Shown in pieces: positions 2,832 to 64,000 of a stretch of 64,000 nucleotides of DNA. Source of the DNA: a virus (lineage: Duplodnaviria; Caudoviricetes). The stretch covers positions 1 through 64,000 of IMG/VR virus record IMGVR_UViG_3300029288_000143. One strand, 5' to 3'. A program made the position numbers and the translations under genes. Numbering within the stretch: position 1 is the stretch's first letter; every line of letters begins with the position of its first letter. The notes beneath the pieces are model-generated. The model was not told the origin of the DNA, made no database searches, and saw only the letters and a list, made by a program, of their open reading frames with translations.

Positions 2832-5108
2832 ATGTTTAACTCACCAAAATATAATTTCTCGTCTGGGTTATTTCGGCCTGAGCCCAGAACTGCAGCTTTC
2901 GGGCGACAGCACCGCAAAGCTAGCCTGGATATGGCTGGCAATATGGTGGGGGCCGGTGGCGGGCAGAGACAGATCTATTCCCCGCTATACGAGCGTGCTG
3001 AAGCTCCTACTCTCGTTGAAGAATATCTTCCTACCGATACTAGAACGCAGAACAAGCTATTCAGAAATATTCTAGCGTACGATGCAATTGCCGGCACCAC
3101 AACGGAGTACTGGTGCTCGATGGCGTTTGGGGATGAAATTTTCCTTAGTGGCATTGAAGATAATGCCATCATGCACCTGTACGAAGACGCATTGTCGGCC
3201 TCTGGTGTCGTCCCACTTATGCCTTTGATGCTGAGTGAATACCTCACAATTGGCCGACTATTTTACTTTATGATGCCGAATCCAGGTACTGGTTATTGGC
3301 AAGGCACTAAAATTCTAGATCCAGACTACGTGCGCTTGGTGGCACCGCGACTGCCTGGGCTCGACCCCATCATGGACTGGCAAGCCAGCACCGATGACCA
3401 GGCTTGGGCCACGATGAACGATCCGCGCGCCGCTCTGCAGCGCAGCCTCATCGAACCGAAAATCGTCAAAGCCATGGCGGGCGGTACGACAATTCCTCTG
3501 GACCCAATTAATTCGTTATTTCTACCGCGAAAGGTTCATGCCGTTGACGACAACGGTATGTCGTATCTCTGCCGTATTTTGCCTTTCAAGATTTACGAAA
3601 AAGCAATTCTCGATGCTTCAATCCAAGGCGCTAGACGTCGTGCGGGCCCGGTTTGGTGGGCGACAGTACCCAACGACTACAAGGCCGAACAGATTGAACA
3701 AATCATTGAGCAATTGTTTGCTGCCGAGGAAGACCCCGTTGGCGGTAAAGTTGCTTTCCGCGAAGGGGTAAATATCCAGCTTCTCGGGACTAAAGATGAC
3801 GTCATCAAGCTCGGCGATGACTGGGACTTCCTCTTCAAAGCCAAAATGGCAGCATTAGGTATTTCTTCGGCCTTCCTGGAAGGCGATACCAATTACAATA
3901 CCCTGGAAACGATTCTTTCGTCTTTCCTGGAAAAGCTACGTGGTGTTCGCGCTCTGTTTACCCGAAAAATTATTCAGGAAAAGATTTTCCGCACGCTGGC
4001 GCAGCAGCACGGGCATGTGCGACGTAGCAAAGCCGAACTCAGCCACCGGATTCGTATTTCACGGAATAGAATTCCCAACGACTCAGACCTGATTCTACCT
4101 AAGATCGAGTGGGACAAATCTCTTGAGCCCAGAGCAGACAAAGATTATTGGGATATGCTGACTTCTCTGGAGGAGAAGGGTTTCCCAATTCAGATGCGCA
4201 AGTGGGCACAAGCTGCAGGTTACGATATCAAAGAAGCTCTGCAAAATCAATCAGCAGAATTGCAGGATCGCGCGAAGATTTACGCGTACAAGCGCGCATT
4301 GATCGAGCAGGCGGAAGCTGCTGGATTTGACGGCAAGGGGCAATACCTGGGAGGCGAAGGTGGAGGTGGCGGGGAAACGGGTGGATTTGGAGATTTAGGC
4401 GGAGGGGAAGAAACTGGTATGCCGGAATTGGGCGGGGAAGAAGAGGCTCCGGGCCTTGGAGGCGGCGAAGCCGGCGGAGCAGAAATGCCTGCGCTTTCCA
4501 TGGAAGAAGAGACTTCTGCCGCACCACCTGCGCCACCCGCGGGTGGGGGTGAAGGCGCAGCTGCAGGGCCCGGTGGGGAAGGCGGCGGAGCAGCAGCCGA
4601 ACTGCGCAAACCGCGGTTTACCGTCAAGCAGCCAGCAACACAATACCGCAAGGGTTCTATTTATTCCAAGCCGGTGGATTTAGAAGCGTTACTCGCTAAG
4701 ATTCCAATCTGGGAATCTGGGCTTACGGTTGGGTTACCGAGACGGCGTGTTGCGCAGTTACTCGATGAAATGACGCGGCGAGATCCACGTGATCGGCGCG
4801 GACCAGAGTTTTACCGTTGGGCACGACGAGAACAGCTCTCGACCTTGCAGGCCGACATTGTCGAATACTGCGCGGCGCGCGTTGGGATTGTAGAATTTCC
4901 AGAGATGGCCAGCGATTCAGTCGCCGTGCTGGCCAAAATGTTAGTTAAACAGGCCGATATTACTGGATTGACTCCAGCTTTGGACGAAGAACTGGACGTT
5001 GTTGGGCGTATGACCGAGACTGATCCGCTCAGTACGGCTATTGGCTCAAGCAAATTGACGTCACATTCCCTTCCCGATAGCAAACTCCTCACCGGACTGA
5101 CTGAATAA
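2832..5108 (+). CDS. portal protein with Gly/Glu-rich linker and C-terminal extension
   Basis: position after terL; size; portal-like features (LPFKIYEK...GARRRAGP, helical core, KMAALGISSAFLEGDTNYN). Confidence 0.75.
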   Translation: MFNSPKYNFSSGLFRPEPRTAAFGRQHRKASLDMAGNMVGAGGGQRQIYSPLYERAEAPTLVEEYLPTDTRTQNKLFRNILAYDAIAGTTTEYWCSMAFGDEIFLSGIEDNAIMHLYEDALSASGVVPLMPLMLSEYLTIGRLFYFMMPNPGTGYWQGTKILDPDYVRLVAPRLPGLDPIMDWQASTDDQAWATMNDPRAALQRSLIEPKIVKAMAGGTTIPLDPINSLFLPRKVHAVDDNGMSYLCRILPFKIYEKAILDASIQGARRRAGPVWWATVPNDYKAEQIEQIIEQLFAAEEDPVGGKVAFREGVNIQLLGTKDDVIKLGDDWDFLFKAKMAALGISSAFLEGDTNYNTLETILSSFLEKLRGVRALFTRKIIQEKIFRTLAQQHGHVRRSKAELSHRIRISRNRIPNDSDLILPKIEWDKSLEPRADKDYWDMLTSLEEKGFPIQMRKWAQAAGYDIKEALQNQSAELQDRAKIYAYKRALIEQAEAAGFDGKGQYLGGEGGGGGETGGFGDLGGGEETGMPELGGEEEAPGLGGGEAGGAEMPALSMEEETSAAPPAPPAGGGEGAAAGPGGEGGGAAAELRKPRFTVKQPATQYRKGSIYSKPVDLEALLAKIPIWESGLTVGLPRRRVAQLLDEMTRRDPRDRRGPEFYRWARREQLSTLQADIVEYCAARVGIVEFPEMASDSVAVLAKMLVKQADITGLTPALDEELDVVGRMTETDPLSTAIGSSKLTSHSLPDSKLLTGLTE

Positions 5109-5497
5109 TGCAAAAGCTAGTCTATCGTGGTCATTTCTATCGTTTGGCCGAAGGCGAAGACGTTACAGCGGCCGAAGAAATAGATTGGCATGAGCATGTT
5201 AATTCCATCATGCGGGCCATCCGGGCCAAACTCGGAGCGCCAGGCGAAGAAAATCGCGGCGCCGTGAAACTCGATGAAGCTTCGCTAAAGATGGTTGCAC
5301 CGACGGGTGAACCGGAGCTTGGATACGAAATCCATGGCGATATCATTACCGAGCTGCCGGTTGATGTAGATCTGTACGGTGGACCGCCGTACAGATTTGA
5401 AGCCATTATCCCACCGGCTAAAGAAGTCGCAGAAAAACAAAAAAGCAACGAAAACGTTTTTTCTTCCATCCTGATCAAAGGCGGCGACCGCGAATAA
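5108..5497 (+). CDS. hypothetical protein with N-terminal hairpin tag (KLVYRGHFYRLA)
   Basis: TAATG coupling to portal; tag shared with many ORFs. Confidence 0.8.
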   Translation: MQKLVYRGHFYRLAEGEDVTAAEEIDWHEHVNSIMRAIRAKLGAPGEENRGAVKLDEASLKMVAPTGEPELGYEIHGDIITELPVDVDLYGGPPYRFEAIIPPAKEVAEKQKSNENVFSSILIKGGDRE

Positions 5498-5503
5498 TTA
5501 TTT

Positions 5504-5521
5504 CACGTTAATCTCTAGGTG
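5504..5521 (+). promoter_or_regulatory. candidate phage late promoter
   Basis: CACGTTA-atctc-TAGGTG, intergenic; motif recurs about 12 times upstream of + strand genes. Confidence 0.5.
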
Positions 5522-5550
5522 GAATCAAAGCGCTTTATGCTGGTGTTGCT

Positions 5551-5937
5551 ATGTGTGCAAATTGGAGCTACGTTTGGCAAACTTCTCAGTATCCCACGAG
5601 TAATTGTGGTCCTAGCATTTGTATGCCTGTGAATAATGCCTCGTGCGGCTCCGGTGCTGGTCAAGACATCTTAGCTAACGTCGATACATCAATTACAACG
5701 ACGGCACAAGCCGTAGCGCACTACGGCGAACAACTTCGCCGCCGGCGTGGTGTTCAATTCTGCACCACAACCTATAACGCCGGCCAATATAATTGGGAAA
5801 TGCCTGATGCCACTGTAGCGATCACTGGCGGCGGGTCGTATCCCATGACGGTTTCGTATGTACAGGGTGCGGATTCAGGTTCATCTATTTTTCAAGATGT
5901 CGAACAAGCCATTGAATGGCTAGTTCGCAAATTGTAA
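5551..5937 (+). CDS. hypothetical protein
   Basis: 128-aa ORF filling the gap in the head cluster. Confidence 0.6.
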   Translation: MCANWSYVWQTSQYPTSNCGPSICMPVNNASCGSGAGQDILANVDTSITTTAQAVAHYGEQLRRRRGVQFCTTTYNAGQYNWEMPDATVAITGGGSYPMTVSYVQGADSGSSIFQDVEQAIEWLVRKL

Positions 5938-6003
5938 GCACCACACCTCACTGATATTAACTTGCAAGTGTGGTCACAAAATCTGTCGTATTAGGAGTTT
6001 ACC

Positions 6004-7323
6004 ATGGCGATCAAGAGTCAAAGTCTTCGTAACAGTCTAGCGCGTCTCCGCATGGCCGAAATCCCCGAGACCGAGATCCTAGATCTCGATGCTCCTGGTG
6101 CTGATACCAGTGAACTCGTCATTCTCGACGAGGAACCTGGCGATGCGCTAGCACCCGAGGTCTCCCCTGCCGGTATACCCGAGGTAGTGGTTGATGGTCA
6201 GCCCATGTGCCCGTGCGCAGGTGGCGAGGTTGAGGGTTCCCCAGCGGATGTGGTCGAGGACGCTGCCGAAGACAAGGCGGAAGACGCTGCCGAGAGTGAT
6301 GAGGACAAGGCCGAGCGCGAAGCCGCAGTGCGCCTAGCTCAGTTCCGCGAGATGCGCGCTATGCGTCGGCAGGCAGCTCAGACTACTGCGGCTGCCCCTG
6401 CTGAAGCTCCTGCGGCAGAAGTTGCGCCAGTAACGGCTCCTGAGCCGAAGACTGCCGAGTCTAAGCCTGAGGAAAAAGAGGAAGAGAAGGCTGAGGAAAA
6501 GGAAGAGGATAAGGGTATGGAGAAAGACGCTGCTGTGACCTGGGCGCCGCTCATGACTCCCGAGGATATGCAGACCCGGGACGGTCGCATTGCTCTCGAC
6601 ATGACGCTCCGTGGCGCCGATACCGCCACTCCGTATTACGTCATGTGGCTGGATGGGCATCCCTTCGGTGAGCTGCACCTCGCTGATGGCAACACCGAGG
6701 AAGATCTCCACGACGTATTCGTTAGCGATACCTTCGTGAATGGCGTGCGCGAGACCGTGGCGGCTTGCGGTCCGGCCAATACCTTCGAGACTCTCCGGGT
6801 GCGTTATTACGCCGCTGAGACCAAGGAGAACGAGGCTGTGCGCAAGGCGAAGGCGGAGATCGCCGGCCACGCTGACGCTGCTTATAAAGCACGTGCGGCT
6901 GCCCTGAAGGGTAATCTCATGGTCACGCTGCACCTCGCCATGGAGGCGTCGCGCAAGAATTTCATCCTCGAGAATCCTCTCAAGGACTCTCTCGTGGAGA
7001 ATATGCGCAAAGCCGGTATGTCGGAGCGCGTGGCGATTGACATCATCGAGGACGCGTTCGTGAAGTCCGGTGGTGAATACCTCAAGGCCATGGTGAACCA
7101 GGCGGACGAGTGGTTGGGTTGGGAGCCCGAGGCACTCCGCCAGATCGAGAACACCGTGACGAAGATGGCTTATGTCCATCCTCTCGACATGGCTCCTCTA
7201 GTTGAGGAAGATATTCCCTCCAAGCCAGTATTCGAGCGCGCGGCTGCGGTTTCCACCGATCCGAGCCTCGATGCTGACACTGATGCTGCCCTCCGCGTAG
7301 TTCGCGCTCGCAAGCGCCGTTAG
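6004..7323 (+). CDS. scaffold/core-like head protein
   Basis: strong RBS AGGAG; acidic low-complexity N-half, helical C-half; codon style like the MCP; directly upstream of the protease. Confidence 0.5.
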   Translation: MAIKSQSLRNSLARLRMAEIPETEILDLDAPGADTSELVILDEEPGDALAPEVSPAGIPEVVVDGQPMCPCAGGEVEGSPADVVEDAAEDKAEDAAESDEDKAEREAAVRLAQFREMRAMRRQAAQTTAAAPAEAPAAEVAPVTAPEPKTAESKPEEKEEEKAEEKEEDKGMEKDAAVTWAPLMTPEDMQTRDGRIALDMTLRGADTATPYYVMWLDGHPFGELHLADGNTEEDLHDVFVSDTFVNGVRETVAACGPANTFETLRVRYYAAETKENEAVRKAKAEIAGHADAAYKARAAALKGNLMVTLHLAMEASRKNFILENPLKDSLVENMRKAGMSERVAIDIIEDAFVKSGGEYLKAMVNQADEWLGWEPEALRQIENTVTKMAYVHPLDMAPLVEEDIPSKPVFERAAAVSTDPSLDADTDAALRVVRARKRR

Positions 7324-7329
7324 TCCACA

Positions 7330-7359
7330 GGGCGGGCGGGAGATGTCTCCCGCCCGCCC
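7330..7359 (+). terminator. GC-rich hairpin (terminator or RNA stabiliser)
   Basis: gggcgggcgggag / ctcccgcccgccc inverted repeat 6 nt after the stop; poor U-tail. Confidence 0.5.
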
Positions 7360-7378
7360 ATCTTGTACGACTAAGCAA

Positions 7379-8155
7379 ATGTCAAAAATTCATCCTATAG
7401 TTTCCTACGGCCCTGGAATACACGTCGGGGATTATATGTTGGCGACTTCGGTCGACAACAAACCCCTGGCCATTGAAGGGCACAAGCTAGAAAAAATCCA
7501 GCGCAACGGCAAGTTCGTGGTTGCCGGGGCCGGACTAGACGCCTGTGCCTGCGGCGTTTTGGCAATTGATTGGTTACCTTTCTGCAGCGAAAAATATCAC
7601 ATTTCCAGCAAAATTGATGACTACGTTATTGTAGAAGTCCCCATCGTCGTCGAGACTTATCCAAACCGTAATCTTGACGCATTTCCTTACGAAGAACTAA
7701 CGGCCTGGTCGACACAAGCTGGACGACCGCGCTTTCAGACTTTCGTGGGAAAACCTGTTCACCAAGACCATAAAAATCAAGATGACACCAAAGCCAAAGG
7801 TGTCATTTTCGACGCTTCGTTGCGTCAATATCAGGGGCGCTGGCACGTTGTAATTCTCAAGGGATTCGATCGGTCCAAAGATCCGCGCCTAGCAGAACTA
7901 GTCCAGAAGAAAAACCGCATTGGCCACTCCATGGGGAGTCTGGTCCAGCGCACAGAATGTAGCTTGCCGTGGTGCAGATATATAGGCGATGGCATTACTA
8001 CGTGCGAGCACATTCGTAAGGGTTCGGGTAAGGGGGATGTGGTCAGGGGGCATTTGGTATACGAATTACTCAGAGATTTCGACTATGTCGAATCCTCTTC
8101 AGTTGAAGACCCGGCCTATTGTGTCGCGCTTAGCGACTCAGTCTGGCAGCCTTAG
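7379..8155 (+). CDS. prohead maturation protease (HK97/assemblin fold)
   Basis: TFVGKPVHQDH, KGVIFDAS, HSMG, CSLPWC..CEH, ESSSVEDPA pattern typical of large-phage prohead proteases; ATG 7379 preferred because 7343 lies inside the hairpin. Confidence 0.75.
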   Translation: MSKIHPIVSYGPGIHVGDYMLATSVDNKPLAIEGHKLEKIQRNGKFVVAGAGLDACACGVLAIDWLPFCSEKYHISSKIDDYVIVEVPIVVETYPNRNLDAFPYEELTAWSTQAGRPRFQTFVGKPVHQDHKNQDDTKAKGVIFDASLRQYQGRWHVVILKGFDRSKDPRLAELVQKKNRIGHSMGSLVQRTECSLPWCRYIGDGITTCEHIRKGSGKGDVVRGHLVYELLRDFDYVESSSVEDPAYCVALSDSVWQP

Positions 8156-8163
8156 GAGATAAA

Positions 8164-8907
8164 ATGTTTAATCTTACCCCCGAGCAAGAAGCCTATATCG
8201 TCGAGCAGTACGGGCCAGAACTTCTGGACCAGCCGATACAGGAGATCATTGATCTCCTGGACGCCGAGTACAGTTATTTGGTCTCGGATGAGCAAGACGC
8301 GCTATCGCCCGACGTCATGGTTAAAACTGAGATGCTCGGCGGCATCATCGCAACGCTGCAAAAACCGGCACCCGCCATGCCCGTAGCCGCTGGTCTTGCT
8401 AAGGCTAGAATTCAGCTCAAAGCCAAGCTGGCTCAGATCAGCCGCGTTGCCAGTGCTGCCGCGCAGCAGCGTGTCGCCGCCGTGAAGCCCACAGGCGTAC
8501 GAGCGCGCACTCGACTTGCGCGTGAAACCGTTGCTGGTACTCCAGCAATCAAGCAGGCCCAGCGTAAAGAAGTGCTCCTTGCCAAGGTGGCAGAGCGTCG
8601 AAGCTCTTTGCAAGACGAACAAATCGCAGATCTGAAGCTTCATGTTTCTGCCAAACTTGCCGCGCGAGAGCGCGTTGCCGCAGCTCGCGCTGTTGAGGCT
8701 GCGCTTACGGACGCCAGCGAGGAAACTCAGGTCGAGACTCCGGTAGTTGAGACTCCGGTACAGGTAGAAGCGAGCGCTACTCCGCGGTTTATCAAGAAAA
8801 ACGGTCAGATTTTTGAAATTGATGTCGAAGCCACGGCGAAACTTCGGGCTGCCCAGGCGCCGAAATTCATCAAGCTGGCGGGCAAGCTTTTCCAGCGCGA
8901 AGATTAG
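8164..8907 (+). CDS. head-associated protein with two C-terminal hairpin tags
   Basis: FIKKNGQIFEI and FIKLAGKLFQR at the C-terminus; RBS AGGAG. Confidence 0.8.
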   Translation: MFNLTPEQEAYIVEQYGPELLDQPIQEIIDLLDAEYSYLVSDEQDALSPDVMVKTEMLGGIIATLQKPAPAMPVAAGLAKARIQLKAKLAQISRVASAAAQQRVAAVKPTGVRARTRLARETVAGTPAIKQAQRKEVLLAKVAERRSSLQDEQIADLKLHVSAKLAARERVAAARAVEAALTDASEETQVETPVVETPVQVEASATPRFIKKNGQIFEIDVEATAKLRAAQAPKFIKLAGKLFQRED

Positions 8908-10045: not shown

Positions 10046-10318
10046 ATGACACCTAAATTTATTCGCGTTGCTGGGAAATTATACCGCAAGGCCGAGGGCC
10101 TCGAAGATATCGAAGCCGCACTCAATGCCGTCGTGAAGGCCAAGAGCGTGCTCCAGGGCCTCGGAATTGATTTCTCCGACCTCGTGCAGGCAGAGAAAAC
10201 TCTCAAAGCAGAAGCTCCGAAACCCAGCACGCAAAAGATTGATGCCGCGGTAAAGCCGGCGCCAGAATTAATTCGCGTCGCCGGCAAACTCTATCGCAAA
10301 GTACCAACCCCAGCCTAA
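10046..10318 (+). CDS. 90-aa protein with a hairpin tag at both ends
   Basis: RBS AAGGA before ATG 10046; FIRVAGKLYRKA...LIRVAGKLYRKV. Confidence 0.8.
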   Translation: MTPKFIRVAGKLYRKAEGLEDIEAALNAVVKAKSVLQGLGIDFSDLVQAEKTLKAEAPKPSTQKIDAAVKPAPELIRVAGKLYRKVPTPA

Positions 10319-10591: not shown

Positions 10592-11077
10592 TTGGATTTG
10601 CTAACCCTAGCCCACGCCTTAGCCGTCTGGCCTGAACGCGGCCCAGTCAGTCCAGGTGTAGCGCAGGAGTTTCCAGAAATTAATCCCTGGGCTTCCCGTG
10701 CAGTGCTCTACGGAGCAGAAATGCACGTTGCTTACCCGTTGGCACCTTCTATATATCCCAGATATTTCGATAAGCCGGTTGTCAAGCAGCACAAGCCTAC
10801 AGGACCATCTCGATCTTCTGCTCTGGTAATTCGTCCCGGTTCTACTTTGCCTGTAACTCTAAATGGGCATCAGGCCACGGCAAACGTTGACTCCGCGCGC
10901 CGTATTCAGTATTCGGGCAAATACACGCATTTGAAATTGACCCTAATCGTCAACACTGAAAAATTACCCCTGACACTGCAAAACGAAACCAAATGTGCGT
11001 GCCTGTACTGTGGTACAGAGCCCCGGGGAAATGATTTCACGTGCCGTTCATGCGGCTCTCCGTTACCGGATTGCTAA
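10592..11077 (+). CDS. hypothetical protein with C-terminal Zn ribbon
   Basis: CLYCG...CRSCG; TTG start. Confidence 0.6.
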   Translation: MDLLTLAHALAVWPERGPVSPGVAQEFPEINPWASRAVLYGAEMHVAYPLAPSIYPRYFDKPVVKQHKPTGPSRSSALVIRPGSTLPVTLNGHQATANVDSARRIQYSGKYTHLKLTLIVNTEKLPLTLQNETKCACLYCGTEPRGNDFTCRSCGSPLPDC

Positions 11078-11083
11078 TTATTC

Positions 11084-11356
11084 ATGCGTAACACGATTAA
11101 ATATCTTGGTGTCGAATATGTGAGAGTCGCCGAAGCGCAAGACGCTTTGAGCACCGCACTGCAGCAGCTTAAAAATGCTAGAGAACAACTCAAGCACGCT
11201 ACCGGTGATTATGGCAATAAGGCAACGTTGGCCAAAGCAATCGCTAGTGCTGATTCTTGGATCGAGGCGGCGAGAAATAAAATTAAACAGCACGTCAAAC
11301 AAATGCAAGAACCGCACATCGCCTCGGCAGAACTAGATAATATAGCCGACGAGTAA
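11084..11356 (+). CDS. small coiled-coil protein with N-terminal tag (TIKYLGVEYVRVA)
   Basis: tag variant followed by an amphipathic helix. Confidence 0.7.
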   Translation: MRNTIKYLGVEYVRVAEAQDALSTALQQLKNAREQLKHATGDYGNKATLAKAIASADSWIEAARNKIKQHVKQMQEPHIASAELDNIADE

Positions 11357-13405: not shown

Positions 13406-14521
13406 ATGTCTATTTATCGCAACAAGATCGTGAACCGGCAGGGCGAGGACGTTGCTCAGCAGCCCCGACTTGCTACTCGCAGTAACGGTACCGTGGAGCG
13501 CACCGCGGCTCCGCTCGTCAACGCCAAGGGCGAGTACAACGCCTTCGATCAGAAGGATCTCAAGAACATCCTCATGACCCTGGCGAACCAGGTCGAGTCC
13601 GGCGAGATGCAGCGCGTGACTGCCGTCGACGAGGATGCGGCTTCCCGCCTCGTGACTGCTGCTCTGACCGAGCGCAACGCTGACCTCCGCGGCGGTGCCT
13701 TCGAGCGCGTCGGCCAGGTCGTCACGGACATGATTTCTGAAACGATGGGCCGCCAGTCGTTCTCAGATAAGATCTTCGCCCGCATGGACGCCAAAGAGGG
13801 CGTGGGCTTTGTGCCGCCCGTGAAGGTCGATCAGATGGACGTTGTTGCTTGGCACTTGACCGCCAACGGCCAGGTTGCCGAGTCTCTCGTCAATCCCAAG
13901 TTCATCTACCCCGAGGGTTATTGGCTCCAGACTCTAGTGTACGTTGAAGAGCAGGATCTGTATTTCGCAGGTTCCAGCTTCCTCGAGCAGAAGCACCAGC
14001 GTGGTCTCGAGGCCATGCTCGTCCGCCAGGACAACGTGGCCAAGTTCCTCCTCGACGCCGCTGCCCCCGTGGCCAACGACGTCGTGACGTTCGGTACCTT
14101 CACCCCGACCGTCGCGGGTATTCTCCGTGATCAGGTGTGGCGTTGGAGTCTGACCCCCACCACGATGCTCCTCGCTGTCGACCTCCAGCGGGACATTCTG
14201 TCTGATGACGACTGGCACAACGTTTATTCGCCAATTCAGAAGCACGTCCTCTTTGAAGAGGGGAAATTCGGCGAGATCTACGGGATGGAAGTGTTCACCG
14301 ACGGTTTCCGTTACCCGACCCTGCGCGTCCTAGACCCAGGCGAAGTGTACTTCCTGTCGGCCCCCACGACCCTCGGCGTGCACATTCCTCTCATTCCTCT
14401 GTACAGCGAGCCCGTAAATCGGCACTTCGAAGGCATCCCCAAGAAGGGCTGGTTCGTCGCTTCCTACCAGGCTACCGTCGTGGCCAACAGCAAGGGCGTG
14501 TCCAAGGGCATCAAGGTCTAA
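13406..14521 (+). CDS. major capsid protein (HK97 fold)
   Basis: 371 aa; strongly biased high-expression codons; RBS AAGGA; C-terminal ...KGWFVASYQATVVANSKGVSKG; followed by a hairpin. Confidence 0.8.
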   Translation: MSIYRNKIVNRQGEDVAQQPRLATRSNGTVERTAAPLVNAKGEYNAFDQKDLKNILMTLANQVESGEMQRVTAVDEDAASRLVTAALTERNADLRGGAFERVGQVVTDMISETMGRQSFSDKIFARMDAKEGVGFVPPVKVDQMDVVAWHLTANGQVAESLVNPKFIYPEGYWLQTLVYVEEQDLYFAGSSFLEQKHQRGLEAMLVRQDNVAKFLLDAAAPVANDVVTFGTFTPTVAGILRDQVWRWSLTPTTMLLAVDLQRDILSDDDWHNVYSPIQKHVLFEEGKFGEIYGMEVFTDGFRYPTLRVLDPGEVYFLSAPTTLGVHIPLIPLYSEPVNRHFEGIPKKGWFVASYQATVVANSKGVSKGIKV

Positions 14522-14588: not shown

Positions 14589-14618
14589 GCATAATTGGGC
14601 GAAATTCTTCAGGTTATT

Positions 14619-17600
14619 ATGAAAAATTTAGACTGGACTCCTGATACCGCGGAACAAGCCGGCGAGGCCATCGGCATCGCTTGGGATACAGCGGAATTTA
14701 CACCGGAAGATTTGCTTCAGGGTATGAATGTCGAGCTTGAGCACTGTTCAGACCCAGATACCGAAGTAATTACTTGTAATTCTGAAGATACTGCTCGAAT
14801 CGCTTGGGCACACCTTAAAGAATCGTCCGCATATTATCGCAATCTAGCTAAAATGGAACAAAGCTTTAAAGAAGCCTCCGCCAGAACGGCCGCCGAGCTT
14901 GAACCCGAGGACTTGGCTAAAGCGCGCGGTCTAGAAAAAACTCGTCCTGTAGTTGACCCCTATGAAATTCGTGCGCGCGAAATTCTTAAAGAGCAAGGCA
15001 ACGAGCAGCCGACAAAAAAAGAACTCGATGCAGCCTACGATTTAGCCTCACGTGAAGGGCGAAAGCCCGGCGCGGCACCGGCCCCAGAAGCCGCGTCCGA
15101 GCCAGTTAAAATCAAGCGCGGAAAAAAGGTCTATAAGGCGCCCAAGCAAAAAGCTGAAGAGCCCAAGCCCGACAAGCAAGAGTTCATCGCGGCTTTCCTG
15201 GCCGATTATGACCATAGGCGCAAGTCTTTTATCATTGATAGTCTGAATGCGCTACGCGCTGATAAATCTATTTCTAAAGAGCAGCGCGTTCAAGTAGGTA
15301 AAACTATCGCGGCCATGCAGCCCGAAGCTCTGGCGGCGTTTGCTTATTCTAAAGCACTTGCTGATTTTGAGACCAAAGCAAAAACTAAGGCACAAGAATC
15401 GGCTTTTCACACCAAAGTAAAACAATACCTCAAAGCGCAGGGTATCGAAGACTATACGCAAGAGCAATGGAGCGCGGCAGTTTCTGCGATCATCGCCCAA
15501 GAGCGCAAAGAAGCCAAAGAACTAGAGAACACCAATATAGAAAAAGGCACCAAGCATCTGCAAGAGAAGAAGGAAACTGTAGACCCAGAAGACGAACAAA
15601 ATGATCAACAGGTTGCGGAGTTCACGCAGCCGCTAGTCACGTCTGCGGTCAGTCAAATCAAGTCTTTTGTCAAAAATCCAAAGGCGGAAGTCTGGACACA
15701 GTATCCTGGTGCAGATAAAACCCGGTGCTTCGTTTTAGATGTGTTGGTTCCTCGCGGTGAGCGCTACGCTGCACGCGTAGGTAATTATCTCAATATACCG
15801 GCTGATGTTGTGCTCGGTGCAATAGAATCATCCGGCGCAGCGTATAAAGAATACATTACATACATCTCAGAGTTTAATACAGAACTCACCCAGGCTTTAA
15901 CTGCAGCGTTTGAGGCTGAATTACCAAAGCTAGCACCGTACATAGATTTGGGTTTAGACAAAAAAGACACAGCGGATGCCGCCGACGATAAAAAAGCTAA
16001 ACCGAAGATTAAATCCGATGTCCCCACACTTGACACCAAGCTCATAGGCTGGGAGCTGGAGATATTTGATACTGTAGCGTTTGGGGAATCTATTTCTGAC
16101 GCACCCGAAGGTTTGCTTTTGGTTGCTACAATCGAAGAATCGTATATCGCCCATTGGTCCGCTGTGGACAAAGCGGCAATCAAAATTCTGCATACAGACA
16201 TTCCTAAAACAGTTAAAAATCCAGGTAAGTGGCCTGATTGGGCAAAAACTGACAAATGGTTCGACGTCAGCACCGAGATGGCAGAACCCAGCGAAGCCGT
16301 GGTCGTGGCACAGCTTGCGAAGTACGCTGGCGGAAATGATTCCTACAGTCTAAGCGCTAGTTCGGCGCTCAAGCTCAAGCGTGATTCTGGTTCACCAGCG
16401 TACACTAAATATTTTGCTAAAAAGTTCGAAAATTTAAAGACTAAACCAGAAAAGACCGATACTCCGGTCATTGCGACAGAGATTTTCCGTGATTATTTAG
16501 AATTACCCGAATCAGATCCGCTACAGTCGCTAGCCGAAGCCATCGTTATGGAAAAAATGGGAGATATAGCGGAGCATCAGACAGCCAGAATACAAGATCA
16601 AGGATATACAGATTGGATGGTCCTGGTATACGATTCAGTCAAGCAGACTGTGATTCCTGACGCGCCCAAAGGTCTATTGCTTTTAGGTATTATTTCCAAA
16701 AAAGATAAAGAACAGCACACTCAGGCGTTGGCACGACGCAAAGCCATTATCAATAGTGCGCAGGCTACAGGGGCACAGCAGCTTGAACTTTTTGGGCCCA
16801 ATGCGGGGCGCGGTGAAGGCCAAGGTGTGGCTGAGTTTACCAAAAAGGCCGAGGCTGAACTAGGACTTTCCGAGGATGAAGCCGATCTATGGCGCCAGTA
16901 TTTCATTGTATCGTTGAAGCAAACTCAGCACACTCACGTGAAACCTATGCCGCGCAAACCAAAAAAATTCAAAACTGAAACAGGCAAGCAAGTGACTATG
17001 AAGCCCGACGAATCTGAATTCGCTGAAGATATTTCACAAATTGGTAAATCGGACGTCGAAACCTACGACCAGCGTTACAGCAGCGTGAAGACGGCGGTGG
17101 TTAAGGACTGCAAAGAAAAAGACCTGGATGATCGCCCCAAGGCCGAGCAAAAAGTTTGCCTCTACAGCGAAGAGGGCAAGCTGCTCGGCCGGCATCCCAC
17201 GGAAGAATCGGCGGAAAAGCAACGCCGCAAGGTCGAGATGGAAAAGCACTCGGCCTACTTCAAAGTCAATCCTCTGGCTTTCGTTTCGGCAGACGAAATT
17301 TCTGATTACTACGAAGAGCAACATCTCCGGATGGCCTATGGGTTCTATGACGCAGACCAAGCGCAAAGGGCCCAAGCCAAAGTAACGGCAATCTGGAAAA
17401 TGCGCAAAGCTCGAGTTGGCGCAGAGTTGACCTATACCAAGCAAAACGGCAACGAAGTAGAATTCATCGGTACGGTGGACAGCGCGCGAACGTACCGAGG
17501 TACGGCTGGGCTGGATCCGGTAGCCATCACTTCCATCAATCCCTTTGAAGAATACGCCCAAGGCAAAATTGGCAACGACACGGCTGCACTGACCGCCGCA

Positions 17601-53143: not shown

Positions 53144-53515
53144 ATGGATACTTTTGTCTTTCGCGATGCTGTATATCGGCGTGTAATAGTTTCCCGTACG
53201 GCGGCTAGTGCCATGCAGGAGCTGCAGAGCGTTCCTCGAGATCTCACCGAGGAACAATTCGATGGCCTGTTGTGGCCGCTCGCAGAGAAGATGGTGCAGC
53301 AGTGTAGCACCAAAGATAAAGGGCCGACTACACGCGAGTGGTGCGTGTACTCTGGCGACAACCAGCAGGGCCTACAAAGCATGCATCTTGACCGGCAAGA
53401 CGCCGTAGATCATGCTTTTATGTGGTTGCAACGCTATTTCTTGACTGGCCTTCGTGGTAACCCAAAAATCAAGAATTTCGATACTTTCCTGCAAGAATAC
53501 GTGAAAAATCACTAG
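53144..53515 (+). CDS. tagged hypothetical protein (TFVFRDAVYRRV)
   Basis: RBS GGAGG before ATG 53144. Confidence 0.75.
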   Translation: MDTFVFRDAVYRRVIVSRTAASAMQELQSVPRDLTEEQFDGLLWPLAEKMVQQCSTKDKGPTTREWCVYSGDNQQGLQSMHLDRQDAVDHAFMWLQRYFLTGLRGNPKIKNFDTFLQEYVKNH

Positions 53516-55142: not shown

Positions 55143-55697
55143 ATGTCCGTACCTAAATTTATCCGCGTCGCCGGTCAATTATATCGTTTGGCTGAGCCAC
55201 CGCCGCAGTTCACACAGGACAAAGACGAGCTTGGGAAGCTCGAGGCAGATCTCGAGATGGCAGAATCTATTGGCGCTACCGAAAACGCCAAGCAGATTAG
55301 GCAAAAAATTGAACAGCTAAAAACAGCTTTCGCACCCAGAGATAAATATTATGCTGACATGCCCGGCGCGAAGTACGTAATTGCACTTTCTCCCGAAGAA
55401 GAAGAGATTCTATTCCAGATCCATGAGGGACAGGGCGACGCCGTCTATGCAGTCGCGAGCCGCAGTCATAGCGCTGGGTTAACTTGGGTCACTGAGGACG
55501 AACTCTCGACCGTAGTGTCTCGTCTTGCCTGGCTGCTCAGTGACGCGACCATCACAGCGGAGATGTCGGAACAAGAGCAAGAGACTGCCGCCTCGCTTCT
55601 CTATGAACTAGAAAACCTATCGTCCGGCAGCACTGGAATTGAGTATCCTCCTGGTGTCATCCGGGAATTTGATTTGCAGACCCCACCCAGCGCTTAG
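55143..55697 (+). CDS. tagged protein (KFIRVAGQLYRLA)
   Basis: tag; helical hairpin. Confidence 0.8.
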   Translation: MSVPKFIRVAGQLYRLAEPPPQFTQDKDELGKLEADLEMAESIGATENAKQIRQKIEQLKTAFAPRDKYYADMPGAKYVIALSPEEEEILFQIHEGQGDAVYAVASRSHSAGLTWVTEDELSTVVSRLAWLLSDATITAEMSEQEQETAASLLYELENLSSGSTGIEYPPGVIREFDLQTPPSA

Positions 55698-55760: not shown

Positions 55761-57479
55761 ATGCCTGAAATTATTTATCGCGGCCAGCGCTATGTACTCC
55801 ACACGGCAGCCGAAACCTATGCCCCGCCTGCCCCGCCGGCCAATTGGGAAACAAATAAGCAAGAATATATCACCAAAGTCATAGCCGATTTGGAGGCTTT
55901 GGGCGAACGCGTTTATACTTTGGGTATTGAAAGCGACGTTATCGCGGAGCAACCCGGAGATGTCGACGCAGAAGTAACGCAAACCAAAGTAAAACAAGTC
56001 CGGCACGAGCTTAAACTCCAAGAAGCCGCCGGTAATGCCGAAGCTGTGGCTGCTCTCAAGGCGCAACTCGACGCACTGGGAATTAAGAAATCTACCACGG
56101 GTTTGGCATTGGATAACTTGGCCAAGGTAATTGACAATACAATCGCGGCAGTTGAACTCGGAGAGTATCTAATCAAAAACCCCACGGTGCCTGCAAAACG
56201 TGCGGTAAAAATTCCTATTACTGAAGTCGTACCAGAGCTTACTCGTATCGTTGATCAGTGGGAAAAGTTTGCGCTATCGAGTCGGCCGGCGTCCGATGTG
56301 CCCGATCAGCAGCGCAAAAAAGAAGAAGTCCTGGGCTTCCCTAAATTCGTGAAGGTACAGCTTGACTTCATCAATAAACACATTGTAGAAGCTACTGAAT
56401 TAGTCAACCGTGCTGCAGTGACCGAAGGCCAGGATCCCGAGGAAAGCGCACGTATCCAAGCTGCGCAAGCCGCACTTCCTAGTTTTATGTACCGGCTCAA
56501 GGTTGTGAATGAATCCATCGCCAAAGGCAAATATGTAATTTCCAACCGTGTCGACCTGCTGGCTGAGATGGAAGATGCGCGGAAAGCCGCAGAAACTGCT
56601 GGCGACGCAGCACAGGCTGAAGAACTGCAGAAGCGTATCGATTGGGTGCAAGGTACTCAAACAACCGATAAGGACCTGAAAGATCGATACATTAAAGACA
56701 TTGTGAAAGAGTTGTTTACAGAGTTTAAAGCGCACTGGCTGGTGGCCAAGGCGCAAAAGGCTAAAGAAAAAGCCGAAGCTGACGCGAAGGCTAAGGCAGA
56801 TAAGCCCGAAAAAGAAAAGAAACCGAAGGAACCCAAACCCGACAATCTCATGGAGGTAGTAAAAGAACTCCTGGCTACGCTGGAGGATATCAAAAATAAA
56901 CAGCCTATGTTCTTGCAAACCGCAAAAGCGCGCGAGGGTTTCGATAAACTCGTGCAGGACACCATCGCGGTTGGAAAGGCTGTAGACGCTGGCGCCGCTT
57001 CTGTGACGCTGTCGTCTGGGGAATACCCAATCAAAGAGGCCGTGAAGCTGGTGCAAGACGGTATGCGACAGTACCGCAGCATGATGAAGCGAGAGTTTGA
57101 GCCCGGGGCCAGAGCGCAAGAGAAGCAAGTCGGTATGGGCAAGAGTCTGGAAGATCTAGATAAAAAGATTGCGGAGATTGATCAGGCCATTTCTGCGGTT
57201 CGCAGCCAGCAGAGTCGTGCGTCTGCAGGTAGCCTGGAGTTGCTAGAACAAATCAAGCGAAAACCGGATCGTGCAAGCAAACTGCCTTTGATGGCCCGGC
57301 GAGATAAAATAGAGCACGAAGTAGCAGAGCTTACTAAGCAAATCGACACCCTGCGCAAAGAGCGTAGTTCTGTGAGTCTAGCGCGTGACAATCTGCTTAA
57401 AAGCGTACGGCCAGGCCCACAGGCCACACCCGAAGTTACCAAACCAACGGGTCCCATTTACCAGACACCGGAGTTCTAA
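55761..57479 (+). CDS. tagged long coiled-coil protein (EIIYRGQRYVL)
   Basis: GGAG RBS; K/E/A-rich helices. Confidence 0.8.
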   Translation: MPEIIYRGQRYVLHTAAETYAPPAPPANWETNKQEYITKVIADLEALGERVYTLGIESDVIAEQPGDVDAEVTQTKVKQVRHELKLQEAAGNAEAVAALKAQLDALGIKKSTTGLALDNLAKVIDNTIAAVELGEYLIKNPTVPAKRAVKIPITEVVPELTRIVDQWEKFALSSRPASDVPDQQRKKEEVLGFPKFVKVQLDFINKHIVEATELVNRAAVTEGQDPEESARIQAAQAALPSFMYRLKVVNESIAKGKYVISNRVDLLAEMEDARKAAETAGDAAQAEELQKRIDWVQGTQTTDKDLKDRYIKDIVKELFTEFKAHWLVAKAQKAKEKAEADAKAKADKPEKEKKPKEPKPDNLMEVVKELLATLEDIKNKQPMFLQTAKAREGFDKLVQDTIAVGKAVDAGAASVTLSSGEYPIKEAVKLVQDGMRQYRSMMKREFEPGARAQEKQVGMGKSLEDLDKKIAEIDQAISAVRSQQSRASAGSLELLEQIKRKPDRASKLPLMARRDKIEHEVAELTKQIDTLRKERSSVSLARDNLLKSVRPGPQATPEVTKPTGPIYQTPEF

Positions 57480-57482: not shown

Positions 57483-58193
57483 ATGGCCAACGCAGTTAAA
57501 TTCAACGGTGCGCTTTATGTAATTGCAGGCAAACCTGCGGCCGGAACTCCACGTAACACCACTTGGACGAAAAAACAGTTCAAGCACTACACATCACCAG
57601 TTAAAATGCCGGGTGTGCGCACCGACGTCATCCAAGGAGACGAAGCTGCTGTACAAACAGAAATTAATCAGCTTAGGCGGGACATCGCAAAAGCTAAAGC
57701 TAGTTATGACAGCTTACTAGATCAGCGCAATCAGCAGTACGATAAACGAACTATTTCTCTCGAGGCGACGCGCTCGCCGGAGCGTAATCGGCTGATCCGG
57801 GAATCAGAGCAAAAGATACTCGAACTAGATGCAAAACTAGACCGAATGGAAAAAGGCATCGAGCGCCTGATTGAAACACTAAACGAAAAACTAAATGCTC
57901 AGGTTTCCGAGACACCAAGCCCAGCAGATCCAGGAGGTCTCGTGGTCGAATATGACCCCATCAAGGTGCGCAAGCAGCAAGAGCTGCAGCGTGATTTGGC
58001 ACAACTGCAGTCACACAAAGAAAAGCTATTAGCTGTGCAGCAAAAGTTCCTGCGGGATAAGTCTCAGCCGATGAGCGAAACTGCGGATAAACTCATCAAA
58101 AAAGATCTGCTCGACACCGACGACATGATCGCACAAAAGCAGCACATGCTCAGGGCTCTGTCGGCGCCTGCAGACCCAATGCTCAAGGATTAA
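57483..58193 (+). CDS. tagged coiled-coil protein (AVKFNGALYVIA)
   Basis: tag; heptad-rich. Confidence 0.8.
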   Translation: MANAVKFNGALYVIAGKPAAGTPRNTTWTKKQFKHYTSPVKMPGVRTDVIQGDEAAVQTEINQLRRDIAKAKASYDSLLDQRNQQYDKRTISLEATRSPERNRLIRESEQKILELDAKLDRMEKGIERLIETLNEKLNAQVSETPSPADPGGLVVEYDPIKVRKQQELQRDLAQLQSHKEKLLAVQQKFLRDKSQPMSETADKLIKKDLLDTDDMIAQKQHMLRALSAPADPMLKD

Positions 58194-58195: not shown

Positions 58196-58933
58196 ATGAC
58201 GCCTAAATATATTCGTGTAGCTGGTAAACTATATCGTGCCTGCCCCTGTACTGAAGTTCCTGCTGCGGAGCATGCAGATGTAGTGCGCGAAGAACTCGAG
58301 ATGCAGGGCTTTTCCGCGGTGCCATGCCAGGAACCCAAGAAAGTGTGTGTAGAGACTCCGCCAGCCCAGCCACAGATTTCGGCTCCACAACGCATTGAAA
58401 CTACACAACGCTCAGCGCCGCAGTTCATTCGAGTACAAGGGCAAGTTTATAAAAAGGCGGCGGCAAATCTTCCTGCTGTTGCTGCTGGAACGCTCAAAGC
58501 GCTGAATCGCGTCAGAATGCAAATTACTGCAATTCTGGGCGAAGCCGATCGCGGGGACGAAGACCGCGCGTCGGACACCGTCTGTATTTCCAATGTTCCA
58601 GGTGAGTTTCAGGTGCTGTCGGCCGATGCGCTGGGTGAGCGCGCACGTGAGGCGCTGGAACTACTGTACAATTCTATCGCGCTGTGGGAGCGCAGCGCTA
58701 CCGTCGCGTTGGCGGAGAATGAGATCATGCAGCACGCGTACGTGCTGCTCAATGACGTGCACGGCGCAGTGTCTGAGGCCGTTGAATCCGGCATTAATGC
58801 GCAGCCTGGATTTTTCTGTGTAGAGCGCGAAAAGTTCTTCGGTCTGGTATCGGATATCTCTGCGTGCATGCAAGCCTTCACGAAGCTAGAGCGGATGTTG
58901 ACCCAGAAATACAGCGTAGCCTCCGTCTCTTAG
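58196..58933 (+). CDS. protein with two tags (YIRVAGKLYRA; FIRVQGQVYKKA)
   Basis: tags at residues ~4-15 and ~77-88. Confidence 0.8.
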   Translation: MTPKYIRVAGKLYRACPCTEVPAAEHADVVREELEMQGFSAVPCQEPKKVCVETPPAQPQISAPQRIETTQRSAPQFIRVQGQVYKKAAANLPAVAAGTLKALNRVRMQITAILGEADRGDEDRASDTVCISNVPGEFQVLSADALGERAREALELLYNSIALWERSATVALAENEIMQHAYVLLNDVHGAVSEAVESGINAQPGFFCVEREKFFGLVSDISACMQAFTKLERMLTQKYSVASVS

Positions 58934-58962: not shown

Positions 58963-58968
58963 GTTGAC

Positions 58969-59553
58969 ATGTCACAGCGCCTCCAATTCCGTGGGCACAA
59001 CTACCGCCTGTACACTCCGAAAAGCCAACGCCGTGAATTTCGCATGGCGGTTGCGGGTCTATGGCGCGACGTCACGACAGTAATTCGGTATCTCGCAGAA
59101 AAAGGAATTGATCCAGTAGTTGTCGGCGGCCTCGCCGTGCAACACCACGGCGTAGAGCGTCTGACCGAAGATATCGATATCTTGATCTCCAGAGCTGCAT
59201 ACACGAAGCTCGTTGAGGAAGGCAAGATTAAGTTCGGGCAGCTGAAAATCATCCCCGGCACGGAAATCGATGTGCTGACCGAGGGAAAGGACAACAACCC
59301 CGATCCTGAATTCATTCGAGCCGGAGATTCTAATTTCCCGACGTTTGCCGGTTTGATCTACCTGAAGCTGAAAGCGAACCGACTTAAAGACCGAGGCGAT
59401 GTCGCGGAGCTACTTAAAGCCCACGAGTTCAATATCGAGGAACAGCAGGAAATCCTAACGTTCCTGCCAGAAGAGCTAAAAATTAGATTTTTAGCCATTT
59501 GGGACGAAGCCGGGCAAGAGCACGACAAACGCAAGCAAATGGTGGAAGAATAA
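58969..59553 (+). CDS. nucleotidyltransferase (Pol-beta superfamily, AbiEii/DUF6036-like) with N-terminal tag
   Basis: VVGGLAV..HG..R.TEDIDI; LKLKANRLKDRGDV; tag RLQFRGHNYRL. Confidence 0.8.
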   Translation: MSQRLQFRGHNYRLYTPKSQRREFRMAVAGLWRDVTTVIRYLAEKGIDPVVVGGLAVQHHGVERLTEDIDILISRAAYTKLVEEGKIKFGQLKIIPGTEIDVLTEGKDNNPDPEFIRAGDSNFPTFAGLIYLKLKANRLKDRGDVAELLKAHEFNIEEQQEILTFLPEELKIRFLAIWDEAGQEHDKRKQMVEE

Positions 59554-60212
59554 TGCAACGTGTGTTTTCAACGCTGAACGATCTCATCGCGCAAGGCGTT
59601 ATTACCGATTATGCTCTTGGTGGCTCCGTTGCGTTCATGTTTTACTGCCAGCCGTTCCTGACCAACGACACCGATTTCTTTGTACAAATGCCGGGAAGCG
59701 GACTGCTAGTCTCGCTCTCGCCAATCTACGCTTACGCGGCAGAACATAATTTTCCTCTGGACCATGAGCACATCGTTGTCGATGACGAGCCGGTGCAAAT
59801 CATTCCAGCGCCCTCACCACTCTACGACGAAGCAATCGCTACAGCGCAGCAGCGGACAATCGAAGGACAGAATGTAAAGGTCATGCTGCCGGAATATCTC
59901 GTCTGCACGGCACTGAATGCCGGCCGAATGAAAGATTTCGCAAAAATCGAAAAACTGCTCGAGGAAGCAGAAGTCGATCTGAGTAAACTAAAGGAACTCA
60001 TTACCCGGTTTCAGCTATCTGCGCAGTGGAAGCGCTACCTTGTCGCCATTGGAGTTACTGATCCAGCTTTTCTGCATTTGGCGGAAACAAAAGCAACCTG
60101 GCGCCGTGCACAAGCCGATAAACGGATGGAAGACAAACTACAAGAAATAAAAAAGCTGCGCACCAGAGTCAGCGCAATCCGCTATAGAAACGCACTGTAC
60201 AGACCTGTTTAA
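59553..60212 (+). CDS. second nucleotidyltransferase with C-terminal tag
   Basis: ALGGSVA..FY.QPFLTNDTDFFV; AGRMKD; ends RVSAIRYRNALYRPV; TAATG coupling. Confidence 0.8.
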   Translation: MQRVFSTLNDLIAQGVITDYALGGSVAFMFYCQPFLTNDTDFFVQMPGSGLLVSLSPIYAYAAEHNFPLDHEHIVVDDEPVQIIPAPSPLYDEAIATAQQRTIEGQNVKVMLPEYLVCTALNAGRMKDFAKIEKLLEEAEVDLSKLKELITRFQLSAQWKRYLVAIGVTDPAFLHLAETKATWRRAQADKRMEDKLQEIKKLRTRVSAIRYRNALYRPV

Positions 60213-62609: not shown

Positions 62610-62612
62610 CGA

Positions 62613-63203: not shown

Positions 63204-63220
63204 GGGGACCTCCTGACTAC

Positions 63221-63248
63221 AGTGTAGCAGAAGTGGACAACGCGTCAA
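63221..63248 (-). promoter_or_regulatory. sigma70-type promoter
   Basis: reverse strand TTGACG-16-TACACT, TGn. Confidence 0.65.
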
Positions 63249-63258
63249 GATGCAACTT

Positions 63259-63276
63259 CACCTTAGTTTATAGACA
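63259..63276 (+). promoter_or_regulatory. candidate phage late promoter
   Basis: CACCTTA-gttta-TAGACA. Confidence 0.5.
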
Positions 63277-63285
63277 GGAGACAGC

Positions 63286-64000
63286 ATGACTACACCAAAT
63301 AAAATCCGAGTTCGCGGTGACGTGTACGAACTCGTGAAAAACGTAGCGCCGCTGGCGCAAATGGACCTCGCCGACGAGATGTCCCAAGATATGCGGTTGG
63401 CCCAAAATGAGTTCGTGACGACGGTAGAGAACGTCATCGATGCCGTGGATGAAATCGATCCGCGCGGCCTTGCATCTCCCATCGCCGGAATGGCCGCGCC
63501 AATCGGCAAGATATTCACCAAAGCGCAAGGAATCCTCAAACTATTTCAACACGACAAAATCAGCGTGGAACTCTACAAATTGGAGTACGGTCGTTGGTAC
63601 TTGGTACACGAGCTGGTGCGTGTGGCCTATCACTTTGCGCGCCAAGATTACTACAAGCGAGACAACAAACTAGATATTGACACCGTGGTCAGCGCACTTG
63701 ACTACGACAAAACACTAAAAGAACTGCGGCAAGACCACGAGCGCTATTACGCGGCAGCCGCATCTAAAATACTGCTGCGCTTCATTAAGGCCGGCAGTGA
63801 GGATGACACCCCTGTCGTACAGGATTCGAAAACAAGGCGTGAGCTAGACCTCAGTGCCGTGACGATACAGCGAATTAAGGACACCATTAAGCACGTGCTG
63901 CAGGCTGCACTTGACCTCGGAACCGCCACGGCCGAAACCCTGGACAAATACGACAGCGCTGCTCGGCATCTCGCGGCAGCTACAAATCTGGCTAAAGAAA
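63286..64000 (+). CDS. tagged helical protein, runs off the window (absent from ORF track)
   Basis: RBS AGGAG; MTTPNKIRVRGDVYELV...; no stop before the window end. Confidence 0.75.
   Translation, partial: MTTPNKIRVRGDVYELVKNVAPLAQMDLADEMSQDMRLAQNEFVTTVENVIDAVDEIDPRGLASPIAGMAAPIGKIFTKAQGILKLFQHDKISVELYKLEYGRWYLVHELVRVAYHFARQDYYKRDNKLDIDTVVSALDYDKTLKELRQDHERYYAAAASKILLRFIKAGSEDDTPVVQDSKTRRELDLSAVTIQRIKDTIKHVLQAALDLGTATAETLDKYDSAARHLAAATNLAKE

Follow-up and report, generated by a model that had tools for sequence, protein, structure and literature searches.

The 64,000-nucleotide window analyzed here, the first 64 kb of a 78-kb jumbo-phage contig (C6), encodes 18 copies of a short peptide motif on 15 otherwise unrelated proteins. 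We interpret this motif as a portable protein-docking tag, a putative docking peptide of about 14 to 16 residues with a phage-encoded partner, and from sequence comparisons we assign this reading a probability of roughly 0.75. Loading of proteins into the capsid through the tag is the function that we favor, at somewhat below even odds. We found no paper describing the tag in the literature searched; it is an undescribed element that, as a putative terminal addressing peptide, belongs to a kind already known.

All 18 peptides reported in the first-pass annotation of the window are present on the + strand, at or beside the positions given there. They are as follows (aa, amino acids; ORF, open reading frame).

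5114..5149, + strand: tag at the N terminus of g5108 (129 aa; the gene abuts the portal gene), YRG sub-type
8788..8823, + strand: tag, Phe variant, first of two near the C terminus of the scaffold-like g8164
8866..8901, + strand: tag, Phe variant, one residue from the C terminus of g8164
10058..10093, + strand: tag at the N terminus of g10046 (90 aa, tag-helix-tag)
10268..10303, + strand: tag, 4 residues from the C terminus of g10046
11093..11128, + strand: tag at the N terminus of g11084 (90 aa, coiled-coil-like)
20389..20421, + strand: tag at the extreme N terminus of g20389 (472 aa), YRG sub-type
31613..31648, + strand: tag at the N terminus of g31604 (247 aa)
32373..32408, + strand: tag in a 17-aa mini-ORF (32364-32417), YRG sub-type
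53150..53185, + strand: tag at the N terminus of g53144 (123 aa)
55158..55193, + strand: tag at the N terminus of g55143 (184 aa)
55767..55802, + strand: tag at the N terminus of g55761 (572 aa, coiled-coil-rich)
57492..57527, + strand: tag at the N terminus of g57483 (236 aa)
58208..58243, + strand: tag at the N terminus of g58196 (245 aa)
58424..58459, + strand: second tag of g58196, internal (residue 77 of 245)
58978..59013, + strand: tag at the N terminus of g58969 (194 aa, MenT1-like nucleotidyltransferase), YRG sub-type
60174..60209, + strand: tag at the very C terminus (last 12 residues) of g59553, another nucleotidyltransferase-like protein
63301..63336, + strand: tag at the N terminus of g63286 (299 aa, extending beyond the end of the window)

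A position-weight model of the 12-residue core, applied in six frames at 15 bits or more, gave 18 matches on C6 and 3 weak ones (15.7 to 18.3 bits) in the remaining 1.51 Mb of assembly G000, which comprises 23 contigs and 1.59 Mb. Among called proteins at 14 bits or more, C6 contained 13 matches in 24,879 aa and the rest of the assembly 0 in 469,213 aa, and reversed and shuffled C6 proteins yielded close to zero at the same threshold; leave-one-out scores were at least 11 bits for 14 of the 18 copies. A degenerate DNA pattern describing one sub-type matched the window 8 times against 0.37 expected, a number reached in none of 100 shuffles. A profile hidden Markov model of the N-terminal copies, the kind of motif-model scan proposed in the first-pass annotation, recovered 16 C6 copies and 2 weak matches elsewhere in the assembly. 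The motif is confined to this phage contig within the 1.59-Mb bin. The upstream element TTTAGTAG had 2 matches against 1.1 expected, which was not significant.

Thirteen of the 18 copies begin 1 to 7 residues after the ATG. By our own arithmetic, the chance that a copy starts within the first 7 residues is about 0.03, giving a probability near 1e-16 for 13 of 18. An in-frame stop lies at most 22 codons upstream in 9 of these 13, so the N-terminal placement is independent of start-codon choice. Four other copies lie 0 to 27 residues from the C terminus and one (58424) is internal. The earlier description of the motif as almost always terminal holds on C6 but does not extend to its relatives, in which internal and tandem copies occur as well. 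When the 18 copies are compared pairwise, identity is 0.47, 0.51, and 0.29 at codon positions 1, 2, and 3, and the 36 bases on either side of the tags are identical at the random level (0.29 and 0.26). These values bear out the earlier proposal that selection acts on the peptide and that the copies are not a DNA repeat.

The peptide previously noted at 32364 does exist, but the 17-aa mini-ORF that contains it is not in frame with a 344-aa body. The mini-ORF ends in AAC CCC TGA, and the body (32386-33420) occupies the +1 frame and has no convincing start of its own; if the T after CCC is skipped, tag and body are joined in frame. Either a +1 frameshift occurs at this site, or the run of four C's contains an indel error.

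With the tags masked, an all-against-all BLASTP comparison of the 15 C6 carriers gave a best E value of 0.19, and the tag is the sole feature common to them. Pfam and PHROGs searches of the 15 carriers returned almost nothing beyond g58969, g59553, and coiled-coil noise. The proteins g58969 and g59553 are nucleotidyltransferase-like, with marginal DUF2204 matches, whereas the ART-like domain that the first-pass annotation had placed among the cargo was not found by Pfam or PHROGs. The homologs of g58969 (19 sequences, 39 to 72% identical) are divided: 8 have an N-terminal tag, each a different tag sequence variant, 11 have unrelated N termini, and the body common to all 19 starts at the same alignment column. 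The tag is a movable module, because a single nucleotidyltransferase family has both tagged and untagged members. The masked-carrier comparison and the split within this family sustain the earlier claim of a portable element on unrelated proteins. The g58969 body resembles the MenT1 tRNA-nucleotidyltransferase toxin (Foldseek E value of 4e-5, template-modeling score of about 0.5), so that the nucleotidyltransferase cargo named earlier also stands, with effector-like enzymes among the tagged proteins.

Two contigs with tagged g58969 homologs contain other carriers. On one, L015, a 349-aa protein bears the tag at its N terminus, internally, and at its C terminus, and a 130-aa protein bears it at the N terminus. 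On the other, L014, the tag is found at the N terminus of a 443-aa protein and at the C termini of two more proteins. In the 6 kb of L016, the contig of an untagged homolog, nothing matched the degenerate DNA pattern, which covers one sub-type only. A conserved Cys-containing segment of about 60 residues (K-G-W-T ... H-K-V ... D-P-G-A-F-C) is common to the four-tag protein P0028 and an 864-aa protein of L014 (L014:7395-9989) and has no Pfam match. For the carrier g20389, the ESM Atlas offered no usable match, and identity with the PaBG protein at the same position was rejected, as the two have no similarity.

The extended consensus of the tag is P-x-h-I-[RK]-[VYF]-x-[GND]-x-h-Y-[RV]-x-[AV]. 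A profile built from 63 copies on six contigs shows the turn Gly in at least 90% of the copies and the Tyr likewise in at least 90%, and the two-residue turn is often Asn-Gly, Ala-Gly, or Arg-Gly. N-terminal copies usually start 5 to 8 residues after the Met in the extended profile, and tandem copies are spaced about 20 to 22 residues apart by acidic, Pro-rich linkers. The tag is probably a two-stranded beta-hairpin, one face of which would carry the conserved residues, both aliphatic and aromatic, since the pattern alternates around a two-residue turn. An AlphaFold2 model of g58969, built with the homolog alignment, has a confident body (predicted local distance difference test [pLDDT] score above 90 from about residue 21) and a two-stranded hairpin of residues 4 to 7 and 10 to 13, coil-linked to the body and of low confidence (block means of 47 and 67). 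A PDB sequence search with the tag profile returned nothing significant.

The tag extends to other phages. Two viral contigs (G001 and G002; portal proteins 56 to 57% identical) contain 4 and 7 copies, respectively, and the proteins bearing these copies show no detectable similarity to those of C6. A third, G003, is a complete 350-kb genome with terminal repeats whose capsid protein is 44% identical to that of C6, and it has 29 tag profile matches, 19 of them at E values below 0.01. In the scans of viral contigs, the alignment of all tags was too degenerate to be useful; a sub-alignment of IRVAG copies led to L009 and from there to G003, and a sub-alignment of YRGH copies gave no confirmed locus. 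No tag was found in the cultured relatives PaBG, Aura, Lu11, and BcepSauron, and the GenBank phage collection, queried with a three-tag protein and a four-tag scaffold-like protein, produced chance-level matches only.

The 63-copy profile was then applied to 1.84 billion representative proteins with an E value cutoff of 0.001. It retrieved 77 proteins, all with 2 to 8 matches, commonly laid out as N-terminal tandem pairs or N-plus-C arrangements; this number is a floor and not a census, because an 18-position profile lets only multicopy proteins reach significance. About a quarter of the 77 were discarded as false matches (13 MucBP adhesins and a few CBM_5_12, SET7_N/MORN, EF-P KOW, and Cren7-like proteins), which arise because generic hairpins fit a short profile. 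Of the remaining matches, 22 were inspected, and all 22 clearly had the tag motif. The genuine matches include g10046 itself, a four-tag homolog of g8164, a three-tag g10046-like protein, three DUF5661 proteins, and a sigma-70 factor with five tags, the last a metagenomic protein of unknown genomic context. The tag defines one clade of uncultured jumbo phages, with up to about 29 copies per genome. Conservation across a phage clade, a point on which the earlier annotation had looked to relatives, is evident from G001, G002, G003, L014, and L015.

The closest named sequence relative of the tag is DUF4278 (PF14105), which it resembles only in the repeat unit. The DUF4278 unit, h-x-Y-R-G-x-x-Y, is that of the YRG sub-type (5114, 20389, 32373, and 58978), and the tag profile matched a DUF4278 protein (P0089) at six places. 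The glutamine-synthetase inactivating factor IF17 of cyanobacteria (PMC6212724) has DUF4278 as its N-terminal part; unlike the tag, DUF4278 is a cellular, cyanobacterial domain of 57 positions. Membership in DUF4278 was rejected, as the tagged proteins had no Pfam match to it at an E value of 0.1 or below (gathering score, 25.3 bits), and a six-frame DUF4278 search of the whole assembly at E values up to 10 found nothing on C6.

The tag is also associated with the head gene module, the relevant genes of which are the following.

2832..5108, + strand: portal protein gene (PHROGs phrog_16240, E value of 1e-74)
6004..7323, + strand: g6004, conserved and untagged, with a very acidic N-terminal half
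7343..8155, + strand: prohead maturation protease gene (PHROGs phrog_18299, E value of 9e-47)
8164..8907, + strand: g8164, scaffold-like, directly after the protease gene, with an acidic N terminus, a long Ala/Arg/Lys helical stretch, and two C-terminal tags
13406..14521, + strand: major capsid protein gene (PHROGs: major head protein)
14595..18344, + strand: gene for a 1,249-aa protein with an N-terminal DUF5661 domain (14595-14870), directly after the capsid gene

Four tagged C6 genes (5108, 8164, 10046, and 11084) lie within the 8-kb interval from portal to capsid. G002 has tags just after the portal gene, and in G003 they lie in the interval from portal to capsid, where six others follow directly downstream of it. 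An association of tagged genes with the portal-to-capsid interval thus recurs in C6, G002, and G003 and is one of the points that lend the first-pass interpretation partial support. Synteny between C6 and G003 takes in g5551, g6004, the protease, g9316, g10592, the structural paralogs, the capsid protein, the DUF5661 domain, g18975, g19631, and g20389. Within this order a tagged gene follows the g10592 homolog in both phages (g11084 in C6), and the g20389 ortholog of G003 is tagged. L014 has a g18975-like gene, a g19631-like gene, and then the gene for its tagged 443-aa protein, which is syntenic with g20389, the two being compared by position alone. In a close relative, L098, the g8164 homolog occupies the same position after the protease gene and has four tags.

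The untagged g6004 may be considered a candidate partner of the tag, proposed from its position and charge only. Its C-terminal helical segment resembles the C terminus of the head-module 'ATPase' of PaBG and Lu11. An assignment of g6004 as a BCS1-like ATPase loader was rejected, since only that segment is held in common and there is no Walker motif.

In C6, G002, and G003 (G003 C1:287021-287233), a single DUF5661 domain directly follows the capsid gene; PaBG, Lu11, and BcepSauron lack the domain. The DUF5661 protein of G003 has three tandem tags. In tag-bearing phages the domain is often fused to tags, and further loci were seen at L014:6577-7398 and L016:2780-3115; it was also found in some cellular genomes (the Deinococcus and Methanosarcina controls).

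These observations suggest a model whose steps we infer, from the hairpin fold and docking to one partner, through a procapsid location of that partner, to packaging and ejection. The tag, on a flexible linker at either end of unrelated proteins and sometimes in tandem, would enable all tagged proteins to bind one common partner encoded by the jumbo-phage clade. That partner would most likely be a procapsid component, either the scaffold or core or the inner face of the capsid. The procapsid is the most plausible location because the only carriers with a recognizable role are scaffold-like head-module proteins, because the head-module association is conserved across three phages, and because several tags per protein suit a repetitive lattice, for which multiple tags would fit a role in avidity. 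Scaffold-like head-module proteins would use the tag to build the core or attach to it; accessory proteins that have acquired a tag, such as MenT-like nucleotidyltransferases and the sigma factor, would be co-incorporated and could then be delivered with the DNA. In its broadest form, which we advance tentatively and consider rather unlikely as a whole, the model holds that throughout a clade of uncultured jumbo phages one hairpin label, read by a head-assembly component, loads dozens of proteins per genome for co-injection with the DNA, including toxin-like nucleotidyltransferases and a sigma factor, and that the label is freely gained, lost, and multiplied.

Several findings weigh against this model. 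No partner was identified for the tag. The hairpin was predicted at low confidence in g58969, and a single-sequence AlphaFold2 model of g10046 consisted of helices, also at low confidence, and was uninformative. Eight of the 15 tagged C6 genes lie in the accessory region at 53 to 64 kb, far from the head genes, and G003 has tag clusters outside the head module at 174 to 181 kb and 217 to 220 kb. Ala-Glu follows only about 4 of the 13 N-terminal copies, no cleavage motif is common to all, and there are internal and tandem copies, in which the tag differs from the N-terminal capsid-targeting sequence known in T4. Relatives whose capsid protein is homologous assemble with no tag at all, so this capsid family does not require it. 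The tagged sigma factor could be equally consistent with a DNA- or polymerase-directed role.

Among known systems, the nearest functional analogs are the capsid-targeting sequence of T4 and the loading peptides of encapsulins and microcompartments, and the parallels are partial. The T4 internal proteins IPI to IPIII have an N-terminal, single-copy capsid-targeting sequence (CTS) that is removed by the prohead protease at a defined site. Like the CTS, the tag is a short terminal peptide that is portable among unrelated proteins, and its phage has prohead protease and scaffold-type genes; the logic proposed for it is also the same, namely, co-assembly with the prohead core followed by delivery with the DNA. 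Unlike the CTS, which is strictly N terminal and single copy, the C6 tag is N terminal in 13 of 18 copies, C terminal in 4, and internal in 1, relatives have tandem arrays, and there is neither sequence resemblance nor a consistent cleavage motif.

Encapsulin cargo-loading peptides and microcompartment encapsulation peptides are short, N or C terminal, and joined by flexible linkers, and they direct unrelated enzymes into a shell; encapsulin shells have the HK97 fold, as do phage capsids. The tag resembles them in being a terminal peptide on a flexible linker with unrelated cargo, whereas it is probably a hairpin and they are extended or helical, with known shell receptors. Its consensus presumably also differs from theirs. 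The scaffolding protein of P22 has a C-terminal coat-binding domain, a helix-turn-helix that is not shared with other proteins. Like it, g8164 is elongated and helical, is encoded beside the protease, and has a putative binding element at its C-terminal end, but this element is a probable hairpin reused on many proteins. Polyvalent proteins (Iyer et al. 2017, PMC5512222) are large and multidomain with several effector domains, unlike the tagged proteins, which are mostly small and single domain or orphan; no such hairpin element was found in that paper.

A different explanation, which we regard as unlikely, is that the tags recognize one another. Hairpins would pair by beta-sheet zippering, multi-tag proteins with disordered acidic linkers would form a network or condensate (a scaffolding core or assembly factory), and single-tag proteins would join it; were the network the procapsid core, this would overlap with capsid loading. 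The small tag-helix-tag and tandem-tag proteins do resemble cross-linkers, arrays of 2 or 3 tags lie about 22 residues apart on acidic, Pro-rich linkers, and no separate receptor was found. Every significant match in the search of 1.84 billion proteins was multi-tag, although this is partly an artifact of the short profile, since only multi-tag proteins could reach significance. There is no sign of tag-tag pairing, and the sole two-tag protein folded, g10046, was uninformative.

It is quite unlikely that the tag docks to a noncapsid partner of phage or host origin, such as a chaperone or AAA+ unfoldase (so that the tag would signal timing or degradation), a hub of replication or transcription, or a compartment made by the phage. 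The majority of tagged genes outside the head module and the presence of a sigma factor and nucleotidyltransferases, which act in the cytoplasm, would accord with such a partner; in addition, the related contig L014 encodes a ClpP-type protease, and the closest named motif, DUF4278, comes from a cellular regulator that works through protein binding. Tandem arrays and scaffold-like head-module carriers are unexpected for a degradation signal, however, and the assembly binned with C6 has no clear DUF4278 protein. As to a host partner, the tag is clade specific, which favors a phage-encoded one.

Binding of nucleic acid is a very unlikely function. A basic two-stranded ribbon would bind DNA or RNA and hold the carriers on the phage genome, and the carriers might then also enter the capsid passively along with the DNA. 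A net basic charge is seen in many copies, the cargo acts on nucleic acids, and the profile weakly picks up the hairpins of small beta-barrel DNA binders (Pfam Cren7, three matches; DdrB, E value of 0.87), yet these PDB and Pfam similarities are at chance level. The conserved positions are the hydrophobic and aromatic ones and the turn Gly, not the basic ones, several copies (including 8788 and 8866) are neutral, and to our knowledge a lone 12-residue hairpin is not an autonomous DNA-binding unit. Finally, although jumbo phages do contain diverged paralog families and some copies, e.g., the four 'IRVAG' copies, are close enough for recent duplication, a conserved N terminus of one such family or a chance or compositional pattern is effectively excluded by the lack of detectable similarity outside the tag, the occurrence of copies at N termini, at C termini, and internally, the presence or absence of the tag within one enzyme family, and the near-zero matches in shuffled and reversed controls.

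If the tag is indeed an address label, it would explain how huge phages choose, from hundreds of proteins, those that end up inside the particle, an open question for every jumbo phage other than T4 and the phiKZ group. It would also supply a sequence rule for predicting injected 'first-strike' proteins from metagenomes, and a 14-residue peptide that functions at either protein end would offer a compact means of bringing foreign proteins into HK97-fold capsids. If capsid loading is wrong, a linear motif with some 29 occurrences in a single viral genome, tandem arrays among them, would still represent unusual motif-based protein networking in a bacterial virus.

Nearly all genes are on the + strand. 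A PHROGs match identifies the large terminase at 423-2471. The virion structural protein at 11541-12344 (PHROGs phrog_16710) has a paralog at 12571-13365, so that tandem paralogs lie just 5' of the capsid gene, where PaBG, Lu11, Aura, and BcepSauron have a single copy. The nearest annotated relatives of the C6 capsid protein, at about 27 to 31% identity, are those of the jumbo myophages PaBG, Lu11, and BcepSauron, the vB_PpuM group, and Erwinia jumbo phages, and no phage record had DNA-level similarity to C6. By its rpoB gene (C1:53402-54553), which is up to 86% identical to those of Patescibacteria metagenome-assembled genomes, bin G000 is a Patescibacteria genome, reported as 99% complete at 1.59 Mb. 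Contig C6 may have been wrongly binned with it, and for this reason we make no claim about the host of the phage.

Other features of the window and its relatives were noted. Between the head and tail regions is an HNH/endonuclease VII-like gene (21817-23019), the product of 36443-37201 has a GIY-YIG-like N terminus, and in L098 an HNH gene is inserted directly 3' of the g8164 homolog; the HNH genes of C6 and L098 and the GIY-YIG-like gene are likely homing endonucleases. Two adjacent small paralogs (33713-34186, 157 aa, and 34218-34697, 159 aa) are alike at their N and C termini and have no family match. A glycoside-hydrolase-like gene occupies 61941-62609, and its L015 homolog (10627-11304), which is Rv2525c_GlyHyd-like, adjoins an amidase endolysin gene and a lipoprotein-like gene; because of these neighbors, the 3' end of the window is probably a lysis region. 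The complete relative G003 has a second, distant capsid-protein-like gene (C1:202351-203016), about 80 kb from the main capsid gene, whose product is 28% identical to the C6 capsid protein over residues 150 to 367 (E value of 7e-20).

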